The notes beneath the pieces are model-generated. The model was not told the DNA's origin. It did no database searches and was given only the letters and a program-made list of their open reading frames with translations. DNA of 64,000 nucleotides, from positions 181,518 to 245,517 of IMG/VR virus record IMGVR_UViG_3300047321_000298; one strand, 5' to 3'. The translations under genes were made by a program, and so were the position numbers. Position 1 is the first letter of the stretch, and the number at the start of each line of letters is the position of its first letter. Positions 18,099 through 24,626 of this stretch are shown one piece after another. This DNA comes from a virus (Duplodnaviria; Caudoviricetes).

Positions 18099-18548
18099 AT
18101 GAAGCTTAAAGCATCAACCAGATTGCTCGCGGATTCTCCCGTCATCGCGCCGTCTGATTCGTTCAGAGACGAGAACAAAGAGCAGTTGAAGGATCGCCAG
18201 TCTGAGAGCCGGAAGACCGAAAAGACGGATAGCGGCAGCCCTTCAACCGAAGCCTCATCTACTGCGGTTTCTCAGGGTTCGCAGGCACTGCCTCAAACCG
18301 AAAGCACCTATGCGCGGCTCATCCAATCCGGAGCAGAGGACGACCCTCTCACGATGGATATGGAGGACGCGTGTACGGCTGGCGACACATCGGACGGTTA
18401 CGTACCGAACTCAGAAACGGGTTTCGAGCTAGAGGGTCCGGACGTGGATGAGAACTACCTGAACGTAAGGGGCTGCTCGACAGAGGACGAACTGCTGGCT
18501 GACGCGGACCCGACCCTGTGGAACAACGCCGAACAGCCGATGGGGTGA
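18099..18548 (+). CDS. leader-motif protein (putative internal virion protein), acidic
   Basis: N-terminus MKLKASTRLLA; GAGG RBS. Confidence 0.65.
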   Translation: MKLKASTRLLADSPVIAPSDSFRDENKEQLKDRQSESRKTEKTDSGSPSTEASSTAVSQGSQALPQTESTYARLIQSGAEDDPLTMDMEDACTAGDTSDGYVPNSETGFELEGPDVDENYLNVRGCSTEDELLADADPTLWNNAEQPMG

Positions 18549-18551
18549 GGG

Positions 18552-18848
18552 ATGAAACTCAACGCGATGTACCGGCTACTCGCACTTTCTGCGCTGGATC
18601 ATGCGCGAAACGTGGAGAAGCTATTCGACACCCTGAGGTCACGCCATATGAGCGTTGTCCTCAACAAGACCGATTACACCATCGGATTCAGATCGGACAC
18701 CGAACAAGTGCTCCGGGCGCTAGGGCTCATGGGCTTTCGCAAAAACGGCACCAGCCACAACGGAATGATGCTCTCAGACGGGCATCAGGAAATCCGTTTG
18801 TTTGAACCACGCGAAGGCTGGCCCCCAATCGCACAGCTTCTACATTAA
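18552..18848 (+). CDS. leader-motif protein
   Basis: N-terminus MKLNAMYRLLA. Confidence 0.65.
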   Translation: MKLNAMYRLLALSALDHARNVEKLFDTLRSRHMSVVLNKTDYTIGFRSDTEQVLRALGLMGFRKNGTSHNGMMLSDGHQEIRLFEPREGWPPIAQLLH

Positions 18849-18860
18849 AGGAATTCAGTT

Positions 18861-19367
18861 ATGTCACGGACAAGTTTGTTTGATGTCGAGAGCGTAGCCG
18901 ATCCGGCGCAGTCGTGGAACTTCGATATGTTCCTGCCAGCGATTCCCGGTTCGTCAGATACGCGAGCTTTGACGTGGAAGTGCATGACCTCAGCGCTGCC
19001 AGGTTTCGGCTTCGACAACGTTGAGGTTCCACTTCACGGAATCGTCCTGAACTATGCGGGCCGCAAGACGTTCACGCATACGTTCAACTCAACATTCATG
19101 GAAGCATCAGATTGGTCAACGCGTTCGCAGTTCTACGCGTGGTCAGAATCAATGCGTTCGTGGATTAACAACAGCGGAACATTCGCATCAGCCTACAAGG
19201 TCAACGCTCAACTCGTTGTGTACAACGATCTGCCACAGGTCTCGCGCACGATCAACGTGATGGGTATGTGGCCTGCTGAAGTTGCAGACGTTGAGCTGGA
19301 CGGCGGCGCTTCGAACCTCATTTCACTCAATATCACTTGGCGCTTCGACTATCTCCAAGATACCTGA
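18861..19367 (+). CDS. tail tube protein (T4 gp19-like)
   Basis: 168 aa near the sheath gene; SALPG...VEVPLHG..LNYAGRKTF...FME and G.WP..V..VELD motifs of gp19-like tubes. Confidence 0.88.
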   Translation: MSRTSLFDVESVADPAQSWNFDMFLPAIPGSSDTRALTWKCMTSALPGFGFDNVEVPLHGIVLNYAGRKTFTHTFNSTFMEASDWSTRSQFYAWSESMRSWINNSGTFASAYKVNAQLVVYNDLPQVSRTINVMGMWPAEVADVELDGGASNLISLNITWRFDYLQDT

Positions 19368-19387
19368 TGCGCGACTCCGGAGTCTAT

Positions 19388-20518
19388 ATGTTGAAGATCA
19401 ATGCTGCATCTAGACTTCTGGTGACTGCTGAAGGGGAGTGGTTTTATTCACTCCCCGACGAGATGCAAAAGCAGTACATAGAAGAACATCCGGAATCCAA
19501 GTACGCCAAGGACTACAAGCCCAAGGGCGATAACCCGTCGATTCCGGGTCCCCAGACTGCACCAAACGACCCGCAATCGCCTCAAAATCAGCCCAAAGTG
19601 CAAACCCCAATGGGAGCACCGGGCAGGCTCCAGAGACCGCCAGCGCAGTTGGTTAAGCCCAGGCCGCAGTTGCCAAAGAAGACTGAAGAAGCGCTGAAAC
19701 ATGTGCCGAAACCTGTTGGAAAGGCACTTAAAAACGGTGGCATGAAGCCCAAGTCGAAAGAGCGGATGGAGATTGCAGAGAAGCTGAAGGCGAAGACTCC
19801 ACGTCTTGCGCGCGGCATGCTTAAAGACACGATGGGTGCTGCAAAAGGTTTGGCATCAACCTACAACATCGTCGTCAAGGGCAAGCCTGAACAGGGCGAC
19901 TTCAAGAAGGTCGCGTCGATGTTCGGGACGATTCTTGGATCATCGGTGATGGCCGCTGCAATTGGGACCACGGGTCCAGTTGGTTTCCTCGCGTTCATGG
20001 CAGTCAAGCATATGGCTGCACCTGCTCTGTACCGAATGGCACAGAAAGCGTTCCATCCGCCTCCCGAACCTGACTCTTATGGCTACTGGGCAGATGAAGA
20101 CACGTGGGTCGATATGCCTAAGGCGGAATGGGAAAAGCTGACCGACAAGGAAGCTGACCGCCGATTCAAGGAAGGCCAGAAAAAGAAGGCGCTAGAGAAA
20201 CACGGTCACGGCTATTGGGACAAAGGTCAGTGGCATGCGCAGCCGCGCGCAGAGTGGGAACAGGATTTCAACAAGCGCGGGCCTGGGAAGCGTTCAGACA
20301 TCGGCAAGCAGGGTGCGTCAGTGGTCACTGCCACGGACGAGGAAAAGCAGATGACCCAGCTTCTGGAGACGCTGTTCGATTTTGTGGAGAACGGAGATAT
20401 CCCGAAGGAAGCTATCGAGCGTGCAGTCTACGAAATGGCTGATGCACAGATCGCTAGGGACCGTGAGCACGAGAAAGAGCAGCTTCAGAGGCAAGAGCAC
20501 GAGAATTCTCGCGATTAA
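19388..20518 (+). CDS. leader-motif protein, basic central region with a hydrophobic hairpin
   Basis: ATG 19388 with GGAG RBS gives MLKINAASRLLVTA; WFYSLPDEMQKQYIEEHPES motif; hydrophobic ILGSSVMAAAIG...FLAFMAV. Confidence 0.7.
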   Translation: MLKINAASRLLVTAEGEWFYSLPDEMQKQYIEEHPESKYAKDYKPKGDNPSIPGPQTAPNDPQSPQNQPKVQTPMGAPGRLQRPPAQLVKPRPQLPKKTEEALKHVPKPVGKALKNGGMKPKSKERMEIAEKLKAKTPRLARGMLKDTMGAAKGLASTYNIVVKGKPEQGDFKKVASMFGTILGSSVMAAAIGTTGPVGFLAFMAVKHMAAPALYRMAQKAFHPPPEPDSYGYWADEDTWVDMPKAEWEKLTDKEADRRFKEGQKKKALEKHGHGYWDKGQWHAQPRAEWEQDFNKRGPGKRSDIGKQGASVVTATDEEKQMTQLLETLFDFVENGDIPKEAIERAVYEMADAQIARDREHEKEQLQRQEHENSRD

Positions 20519-20606
20519 GCGTGCAACACCCGCAATTTCATTAGAGCAGTAACCTGCGCATCGACGCTCACAAGACTTCAATTTTCCTTTCGCAATAAGG
20601 TACAAA

Positions 20607-23385: not shown

Positions 23386-23643
23386 ATGGAACTGAACGCA
23401 GCTACGCGGCTGATTGCGTCGGACATCGAAGAACGTCTAAAGGAAAAGATGTCGCGGTATGGCCACGCGACTTTTACTGGCAGGCGCGACTTCGATGCCA
23501 TCGAGAAGCTGGAGCGCGAGGGAAAGCTCCAGGACTATGCCGTGTCTCGCGATGTATACAACGCTAACGGTCCCGAATTTAAGTCGCAGTGGAAGTCCCC
23601 GCGCTCAAAGACCGCCTACGAAATCACCGTGAGTCCGAAATGA
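23386..23643 (+). CDS. leader-motif protein
   Basis: MELNAATRLIA; GAGG RBS. Confidence 0.75.
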   Translation: MELNAATRLIASDIEERLKEKMSRYGHATFTGRRDFDAIEKLEREGKLQDYAVSRDVYNANGPEFKSQWKSPRSKTAYEITVSPK

Positions 23644-23834
23644 TAGAACTGAACGCGGCGTACAGACTGCTCGCACTGAGCTATGACGGCAACATCGGAA
23701 TGATGGAGATGGTCAAGTTCTATAAGGTGGCGACACCGGAGCAGAAGAGCCTGATGCAATCCTTCCTCAGTAGCAAACAGTTTGCCAAGGGCTGGGAACT
23801 GCTCCAGGACGTGACCGGTGTCAAACTCAAATAA
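23640..23834 (+). CDS. leader-motif protein
   Basis: ATGA overlap at 23640 gives MIELNAAYRLLA...YDGNIGMMEMVKFY. Confidence 0.75.
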   Translation: MIELNAAYRLLALSYDGNIGMMEMVKFYKVATPEQKSLMQSFLSSKQFAKGWELLQDVTGVKLK

Positions 23835-23855
23835 CCTCAAACACTGTACCAATCT

Positions 23856-24131
23856 ATGACGACACTTAACGCATCATCTCGGCTGACTGCGGGTGCCCCT
23901 CACGACCGGCACCTGGAAAAGATCGTCAACGCGATCAACCACAGCGGCATCAAGGCCGCACACATCAATTCGGAGGGTCAGGAAGTCGTGGTGAGTACCA
24001 TGAAACCCTTCAACGTTCACATGCTTGGGAAGTTCGCTGAGCAAATGCACGTCGATCCGCAGCACATCAGCATTGAACTCGGTCACGGTGTCATCGAACT
24101 CCGTATTCCTGAGTTCGTAATCGGCAAGTAG
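23856..24131 (+). CDS. leader-motif protein
   Basis: MTTLNASSRLTA. Confidence 0.72.
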   Translation: MTTLNASSRLTAGAPHDRHLEKIVNAINHSGIKAAHINSEGQEVVVSTMKPFNVHMLGKFAEQMHVDPQHISIELGHGVIELRIPEFVIGK

Positions 24132-24139
24132 GTAGAATA

Positions 24140-24391
24140 ATGACGGGACTCAACGCAGCCACCCGCCTCGTGGCATCCGAGCCACGACTGACGCGTCAGG
24201 AACTGTTTAAACGGGCCCGCGATAAGGGGTACAAGGTGACGGATAGGGGAACGCGCGTTTTCGTTACCCTGAACCGGTACACGTCGCTTGTGTTCTACGA
24301 AGACGGTTCGATCTTCTTCGCAGACATGGACCTATCGGCAGCAAAGAAAATCCCGCTGAAAGAAGCCTTTCGGATTTTGAAACTCCTGTGA
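24140..24391 (+). CDS. leader-motif protein
   Basis: MTGLNAATRLVA. Confidence 0.75.
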   Translation: MTGLNAATRLVASEPRLTRQELFKRARDKGYKVTDRGTRVFVTLNRYTSLVFYEDGSIFFADMDLSAAKKIPLKEAFRILKLL

Positions 24392-24398
24392 GAAACCC

Positions 24399-24626
24399 AT
24401 GACTGAACTCAACGCAGCCACCCGCCTCGTGGCGACGGAAACCGAAAAGCCAGGTCATGGCGAAGTCGGCTCGCACGAGTATGAGAACTACGGCAAATAC
24501 TTTCGTAGAGGTGATCTGGTGAAAGATAACTACGGCAAGTTACATACAGTGCGGGAGCATCGCGGCCCACAAGTATTTTTTCAGGACGGGGGCTACGCCC
24601 ACCCGTCGAAACTGCATCTAGCCTGA
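24399..24626 (+). CDS. leader-motif protein
   Basis: MTELNAATRLVA; C-terminal RGDLVKDNYGKLHTV.......VFF resembles a small SH3/KOW-like barrel. Confidence 0.75.
   Translation: MTELNAATRLVATETEKPGHGEVGSHEYENYGKYFRRGDLVKDNYGKLHTVREHRGPQVFFQDGGYAHPSKLHLA

Follow-up and report, generated by a model that had tools for sequence, protein, structure and literature searches.

What does it mean when one short N-terminal peptide heads gene after gene in the structural region of a phage genome? The question is raised by a 64,000-nucleotide stretch of virus DNA (henceforth the window) that makes up the last 64 kb, bases 181518-245517, of a single 245,517-bp contig (IMG/VR record IMGVR_UViG_3300047321_000298). 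Between positions 18099 and 24626 of the window, 13 open reading frames (ORFs) start with M-x(1-2)-[LI]-[NK]-A-x-x-R-L, a peptide that we call the tag, and the N-termini that an earlier reading of the window (the original prediction) had ascribed to them proved right in all 13 cases. The tag is under selection as a peptide, and by analogy with the capsid-targeting sequence (CTS) of phage T4 we give a probability of about one half to its being an address that loads proteins into the virion.

In a six-frame translation of the window, the pattern [LI][NK]A..RL occurs 14 times, against a mean of 0.47 and a maximum of 2 in shuffled sequences, and 13 of the 14 matches sit one to three residues past an ATG. 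The remaining match belongs to an ORF (2841..3278, + strand) that ends in VQLKAHSRLMGG followed by its stop codon, possibly a C-terminal copy of the tag core, which may also be due to chance. In the called genes of the genome, the core A..RL.[AVG] is found 25 times when 8.1 are expected, with 18 of the 25 in the 31-kb stretch between 174.5 and 206 kb. The codons behind the tag vary: arginine is written as AGA, CGA, CGC or CGG, leucine as TTG, CTA, CTC, CTG or CTT, alanine as GCA, GCG or GCT and asparagine as AAC or AAT. Upstream of the tagged starts, purine-rich ribosome-binding sites are the sole feature that the DNA has in common, and folding of four start regions revealed no RNA structure (z between -0.6 and +1.0 relative to shuffles). 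Since synonymous codons are mixed, the upstream DNA is unconserved and no RNA fold is seen, we conclude that the motif is conserved as a peptide, as the original prediction had held; codons, upstream DNA and RNA folding all speak against the nucleotide-level element that it had named as its possible undoing. The hydrophobic core of about 10-15 residues behind a basic N-region that is typical of Sec, Tat or lipoprotein signal peptides was not found in these N-termini, whose best 19-residue Kyte-Doolittle window (starting at residues 1-3) reaches at most 0.39, and a Sec signal was rejected because the N-termini are insufficiently hydrophobic.

Its sequence places the source phage among the jumbo myophages of the phiRSL1/Sarumanvirus group (the phiRSL1/BcepSauron/Motura clade). 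Its tail sheath protein, encoded at 16110..18047 (+ strand), shares 70% amino acid identity with those of Ralstonia phage phiRSL1 and of Burkholderia phages BcepSauron and BcepSaruman, 59% with that of BCSR5 and 52% with that of Achromobacter phage Motura. These relatives also have the same gene order at the array, which runs from a large helicase through the head maturation protease, an acidic scaffold-like protein, a virion protein, the major capsid protein and three small genes to the sheath and the tube.

Across the clade we collected 63 distinct tagged ORFs from 15 genomes or contigs, and a logo drawn over them reads [LI]-N-A-A-x-R-L-x-A-[TSA]; its A, R and L show little or no variation. 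When the tag was removed from a subset of 45 of these ORFs, the remaining sequences fell into 28 BLAST clusters, and within this subset only two tagged families are positionally conserved: an acidic protein encoded between the sheath and tube genes (the sheath-tube protein) and a protein encoded after the tube gene (the post-tube protein). BcepSauron carries the tag on its sheath-tube gene (gp077), on gp091 and on a NUDIX protein, and Motura has tags of the MEIQAAYRLLAL type. Metagenomic (IMG/VR) relatives found via the tube protein have one to nine tagged ORFs near the tube gene, and in one jumbo contig (L033) eight tagged ORFs follow each other consecutively. The peptide is kept in phages whose DNA no longer aligns. 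That cargo would change behind a constant leader in related phages is therefore borne out by this search: the tag is clade-wide and its cargo is freely swapped. phiRSL1 has one clear tagged ORF only, the NUDIX ORF109 (MKINSAFRLLVTS); its ORF133, which follows the protease, begins with the loosely tag-like MYEIKAAVDRLKATE. In L009 (1772-1840), a homologue of the post-tube protein has a doubled tag core (LNATYRLLVTGSRLVTAE), as if from a small internal duplication.

The phage itself encodes about nineteen tagged proteins. We built a position matrix from the tags and scanned the whole 245.5-kb genome with it; 16 ORFs scored 21-30 bits, the next best 14.5, and all 16 lie between 174.5 and 206 kb, in the head-tail module. 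At least three and probably six tagged genes are thus added 0.3-7 kb upstream of the window (locus L002). Those found there encode a 517-residue protein with a Zeta_toxin domain (E 4e-20, residues 207-375), two ATLF-like HExxH zincins (in one of them the zincin domain spans residues 86-150 of 168), a 131-residue protein, a NUDIX hydrolase (domain at residues 28-147 of 167) with the degenerate tag MTFIQRLLATA, and, beside the connector gene, a conserved 267-residue protein with the degenerate tag MEAAKRLAASE. All of the tagged enzymes have the tag well clear of their Pfam domain, and the tagged proteins, of 64-517 residues, have at most one such domain each. By contrast with these enzymes, the 13 cargo proteins of the window gave no significant match in Pfam or PHROGs, and an Atlas feature search with the 156-residue protein returned only unnamed viral clusters, below 0.8. 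The label of anti-defence proteins that the window's own 13 had been given is therefore unsupported.

The array itself begins between the sheath and tube genes and, as had been pointed out before, three of its members flank the tube gene (18861..19367, + strand), which is untagged: two lie before it and one after. Tagged gene 1 (18099..18548; all array genes are on the + strand) encodes a low-complexity protein of 149 residues and isoelectric point 4.05 that starts MKLKASTRLLAD; its family is kept in relatives and bears the motif IAPSDSFRxEN. Gene 2 (18552..18848) encodes 98 residues starting MKLNAMYRLLAL. Gene 3 (19388..20518; 376 residues), whose family is kept after the tube gene in relatives, joins the tag to a W..HPxSKYAK module, a Pro/Lys-rich linker and a segment at residues 187-205 (Kyte-Doolittle 1.63) that is the sole hydrophobic one among the tagged proteins examined. 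An untagged conserved gene (20607-21353) then interrupts the array, which resumes with gene 4 (21413..21742; 109 residues), consisting of the tag and a WW..HPxS module and used as the query for the module profile and fold described below, gene 5 (21750..22220; 156 residues starting MELNAGSRLIEAATE, no family match) and gene 6 (22245..22529; 94 residues). The frame of gene 7 (22538..22999) is open from 22538, 58 codons upstream of its tag; the ATG of the tag at 22712 is preceded by a ribosome-binding site of its own, AAGGTG, and the homologue in L010 begins at the tag, so that the tag of gene 7 may be internal or may mark a small gene fused in frame. There follow gene 8 (23065..23376; 103 residues), gene 9 (23386..23643; 85 residues), gene 10 (23640..23834; 64 residues), whose start codon overlaps the gene 9 stop codon (ATGA) and which also has a homologue in L010, gene 11 (23856..24131; 91 residues), and genes 12 (24140..24391; 83 residues) and 13 (24399..24626; 75 residues), whose tags end in RLVASE and RLVATE, respectively, each an A-x-E site. 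These genes are tightly spaced, with neither a strong promoter nor a strong terminator inside the array, and a strong intrinsic terminator (24626..24661, + strand; 12-bp stem and U run, free energy -21.7 kcal/mol, z -4.0) follows the last of them, with sigma-70-like promoters starting beyond it. We conclude from this arrangement that the late head-sheath-tube operon has the array as its distal part.

The claim that the tagged proteins are unrelated after about 11 residues holds at the level of BLAST and needs one correction: the products of genes 3 and 4 and of the upstream Zeta-toxin gene share about 35 more residues past the tag, W-[WF]-x2-L-x7-Y-[IL]-x2-H-P-x-S. The tag is thus the front part of a wider and apparently undescribed module, in which it precedes a W-W...H-P-x-S-K-Y-A-K helical hairpin. 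A profile of tag and module searched against 1.84 billion representative proteins matched 685 protein clusters at the cut-off of E <= 0.001, 57 of them at E <= 1e-10; the hairpin part of the module can be written as W-[WF]-x2-[LM]-x6-7-Y-[IL]-x2-H-P-x-S-K-Y-A-K. Among the 150 top matches, which range from 45 to 2530 residues, 61 start with the tag (loose pattern) and others start with variants such as MKILSRLKLTAE. In an AlphaFold2 model based on a 68-row alignment, the module forms a two-helix hairpin (predicted local distance difference test [pLDDT] 85-93 for residues 11-40) and the tag an exposed coil (pLDDT about 70); a low-confidence coil of this kind is as expected for a linear motif that would fold on a partner. 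No Pfam or PHROGs model matches the module on the window proteins, nor does any Pfam model cover its positions in the longest matches. We found no description of the tag or the module in the literature, and term searches of Iyer et al., 2017 (PMC5512222) brought up no match to the module.

The longest of these matches carry LPD1, RelA_SpoT, HNH, Zeta_toxin, 2H-ligase, InPase and TopoIB domains (Pfam), a set of effector domains that identifies them as the polyvalent proteins described from phages and conjugative elements by Iyer, Burroughs, Anand, de Souza and Aravind (2017), which that work predicts to be packaged in the capsid and injected (PMC5512222). Encoded among large virion-type genes, these giants contain two to five copies of the module, heading successive stretches; several copies are preceded by a tag-like RLLAALGI[ETD] and then ADWW, and one stands about 85 residues before a Zeta domain, in the same order as in the separate Zeta protein of this phage. 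The likeness therefore extends from the effector repertoire (Zeta-toxin kinase, zincin peptidase, nucleotide-targeting hydrolases) to shared domains, since the module of this phage recurs in giants bearing LPD1, RelA_SpoT, HNH, Zeta and TopoIB. The difference is one of architecture: polyvalent proteins unite 2-15 effector domains in one polypeptide, whereas here the effectors are separate small genes with a tag each. Other lineages have arrays that join a leader of their own to the same W..HPxSK hairpin, namely five genes at about 7884-12500 of one IMG/VR contig (L074), next to a gene for a connector homologue (35% identity), and seven genes at 355-9700 of another (L082), the lineage-specific leaders being of the form MKTLELAKKAVxRLAE or MKHLATIQTEFLKEARK. 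These findings suggest that T4-style tagged internal proteins and polyvalent proteins represent alternative solutions for packaging one kind of cargo. A bolder generalization, which we put forward tentatively and at clearly less than even odds, is that tag and hairpin are a portable module header with which many unrelated lineages load effectors, and perhaps cut them apart, whether these are encoded by separate genes or as units of a giant, the tag being tuned to the receptor of each lineage.

How might such a tag act? In T4, the CTS directs a variety of internal proteins to the scaffolding core, and these are injected and counter host defences (PMC3012670). Here, the peptide M-x(1-2)-[LI]-N-A-A-x-R-L-x-A forms the first residues of a variable set of late proteins, encoded in one transcription unit with the head, sheath and tube proteins. 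By analogy, the tag would bind a common component of the assembling particle, most likely in the prohead core or the inner shell, and the tagged proteins would become part of the virion and exit together with the DNA when a cell is infected, the effectors of this phage being separate tagged genes instead of one polyprotein. Virion loading, the capsid as its site, ejection and any removal of the tag are steps that we infer. The likeness to the CTS of IPI, IPII, IPIII and Alt is that of an N-terminal peptide of about ten residues on unrelated, diversifying late-gene proteins, and it recurs here. There are also differences: loading has been demonstrated experimentally in T4 whereas here it is predicted, and the tag belongs to a larger module and has internal copies as well. 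We presume the two peptides to have no sequence likeness. Every T4 CTS ends in a cleavage site for gp21, and it is on this point that the comparison is weakest. Among the window tags, only those of 24140 and 24399, and perhaps 19388 and 21750, have the A-x-E cleavage form. As an A-x-E site is present in only about a quarter of the tags, the analogy with T4 fails on one defining feature for most members and removal is not to be assumed; cutting by the head protease is plausible only for that quarter. The earlier proposal of an interchangeable address on variable late cargo is therefore strengthened by the clade-wide tag, the changing cargo, the enzymes among it (Zeta toxin, NUDIX, zincins) and the module shared with polyvalent proteins, and weakened as regards cleavage.

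Several observations weigh against virion loading. Glutamate is found at position RL+4 in only 15 of 63 tags, though it is about three-fold enriched there, and [AGS]-x-E is unenriched within 14 residues past the tag (13/44, against 11/44 and 10/44 further in). Half of the tagged genes adjoin tail genes, not head genes. Tag-like copies in an internal or C-terminal position, one in an ORF of this phage (L002 16205-16567) and others in gp093 of BcepSauron (internal and C-terminal), are what one would expect of a general binding or cleavage motif rather than an N-terminal signal. The head and tail proteins of phiRSL1 are 70-76% identical to those of this phage; with its single tag and no hairpin module, a conserved virion receptor would be nearly idle there. 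Finally, we found no proteomic or structural support in the literature on the clade for the presence of any tagged protein in the virion. The infection-time proteomics of Burkholderia jumbo phage Matilda, a member of the clade with collapsed terminal repeats, is a whole-cell time course only, in which 'cluster 1' proteins peak at time 0 (preprint 10.64898/2026.10.21.760668). PaBG, a distant relative with a virion proteome, showed no tag in a 41-kb region centred on the sheath, and its proteome is therefore of no use for this question.

The proteins that might cut or bind the tag are encoded upstream of the array, all on the + strand. The candidate processing enzyme, should the tag be removed, is the head maturation protease (9954..10874), which matches the PHROG 'head maturation protease' (E 2e-86) and, with 100% probability in hhalign, PaBG_00226, a 'prohead core protein protease'; its His145 and Ser203 are invariant. 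It gave no match in Pfam, and profile and sequence searches against PDB sequences were empty; an AlphaFold model from a 6-row alignment reached a pLDDT of 37, too low to be of use. The major capsid protein (13447..14532) has the N-terminus ...P-M-V-A-A-S-E/Y-K-F (13447-13510), conserved over the clade in the form of an A-x-E protease site: in 32 homologues A17 is invariant and its neighbours exceed 90%, which makes a maturation cleavage after about 19 residues likely. In the jumbo myophages phiKZ, 201phi2-1 and SPN3US, N-terminal propeptides of 20-254 residues are cut by the prohead protease after A-x-E (PMC10052503). These phages have many internal head proteins, the propeptides of their head and ejection proteins are cut at [S/A/G]-x-E, and the A-x-E form returns here in the VAASE/Y of the capsid and in tags that end in VATE or VASE. 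The difference is that their propeptides have no reported common short tag, whereas the tagged proteins share ten residues that are mostly without a cleavage motif. A positional candidate for the prohead core component is the 526-residue product of 10931..12511, which is very acidic, has a disordered N-terminal half and, placed between the protease and the capsid gene, looks like a scaffold. Annotated as 'ATPase' in phiRSL1 and Motura, it has no Pfam match, and we saw no Walker A motif on reading its sequence. It contains two to three conserved (S/T)-T-H-F-x-N-E repeats, which resemble the IAPSDSFRxEN motif of the tagged sheath-tube family and may be putative processing sites. Its tag-like SAKQRLAAA is unconserved in orthologues and was set aside as chance, and a complex prediction that combined the capsid protein, a tag-module piece and the scaffold-like protein (C-terminal half) scored 0.00 with the partner poorly folded, an outcome that speaks neither for nor against binding.

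Could the motif instead be mainly a processing site or propeptide, cut by the head protease or by the phage's own tagged zincins, for instance before the Leu of R-L? We consider this unlikely. It would accord with the recurrence, between polyvalent stretches, of a module with RLLAALGI[ETD] before several copies, with the enrichment of glutamate at RL+4, with the internal and C-terminal tag copies, and with the two tagged HExxH zincins encoded here, since zincin peptidases have been proposed to process polyvalent polyproteins (Iyer et al., 2017, PMC5512222). Yet cutting 8-12 residues off about 19 unrelated small proteins would have no evident purpose unless the piece had first served, for example, in targeting; in addition, most tags are without the A-x-E form, and the predicted VAASE/Y site of the capsid is unlike the tag.

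Cargo might also be docked at a site of the virion other than the head, such as the tail-tube lumen, the neck or the baseplate. The tag would then work like the N-terminal packaging signals on payloads of extracellular contractile injection systems (eCIS), including the Photorhabdus virulence cassettes (PVC). In these systems, as in encapsulins, unrelated cargo is sent to the lumen of a phage-derived particle by a short peptide at one terminus. PVC loading requires an AAA+ ATPase, and encapsulin tags are mostly C-terminal and bind an HK97-fold shell; these are other particles with other receptors and have no sequence likeness to the tag. The position of the genes fits tail docking, with three tagged genes flanking the tube gene and ten following in the same operon as sheath and tube, with both positionally conserved tagged families next to the tube gene, and with tag-like copies in small proteins beside the head-tail connector gene. 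Against it stand the myophage tube lumen, which is normally occupied by the tape-measure protein, and the upstream tagged cluster, which adjoins connector, helicase and head genes rather than tail genes. The link to polyvalent proteins also indicates packaging in the head (PMC5512222), and we judge docking outside the head improbable. An AAA+ loader of the Pvc15 kind was considered and rejected, as the head-tail module yielded no ATPase domain and the 'ATPase' protein lacks both a Pfam match and a visible Walker A motif.

Equally doubtful is an intracellular role unrelated to the virion, in which the motif would be a degron or adaptor site recognized by a chaperone or an ATP-dependent protease, or would be held by a single host or phage partner that gives the proteins a common timing or localisation. 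Short N-terminal recognition motifs are known for ClpXP-type proteases, the modelled tag is an exposed coil, and phiRSL1 manages without most of the system despite its similar virion proteins; Matilda is moreover reported to encode an ATP-dependent protease. Against a purely intracellular motif, tagged genes lie consistently in late structural operons, even in distant relatives, the tag is present on genes that keep their position in the structural module, and the polyvalent proteins that contain the module have large virion-type genes as neighbours. Least probable by far is a recombination site, translation-initiation element, RNA structure or chance resemblance: the constant position at the very start of genes and the DNA elements that bound the cassette-like arrays of T4-type phages would suit an element in the DNA or RNA, but we rejected it on the codons, which are mixed at every conserved residue, the shuffle counts and the unstructured start regions, and chance is at odds with an expectation of 0.47 matches and with a peptide that outlasts DNA similarity.

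Two neighbouring features were noted in the window. An HNH endonuclease gene (2504-2824; PHROG E 1e-14) lies among the connector-proximal genes, and HNH domains also adjoin the module inside polyvalent-protein matches. Directly after the array come repeated cassettes (24668-24740, 25580-25607, 26117-26144 and 26736-26805), each with a sigma-70-like promoter (TTGCAC/TTGACG, 16-17 nt, TATAAT/TACAAT); at 24668-24740 and 26736-26805, both of which were read directly, the promoter is followed by a conserved leader, GTTGGAT(T/G)(C/T)GAAACGAACCAGGAGC, and then an ATG. To judge from these sequences, they look like early or middle gene cassettes for the host RNA polymerase.

That a short shared tag can mark diverse virion cargo is already known from T4. 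What is new is the tag found here and the fact that it extends over the phiRSL1-like clade, together with the undescribed, widespread hairpin module and the link of tagged arrays to polyvalent proteins. If the tag loads proteins, some 19 proteins of this phage would be marked as delivered with the DNA, and hundreds of metagenomic protein families would be marked likewise, exposing a first wave of host takeover and counter-defence that is otherwise invisible in sequence; its ten residues would then offer a practical means of bringing selected proteins into the head of a jumbo phage. Should tag and hairpin be a module header across lineages, they would give a readable code with which to predict the injected proteome of uncultured phages and, again, a handle for loading proteins of choice into jumbo-phage particles.

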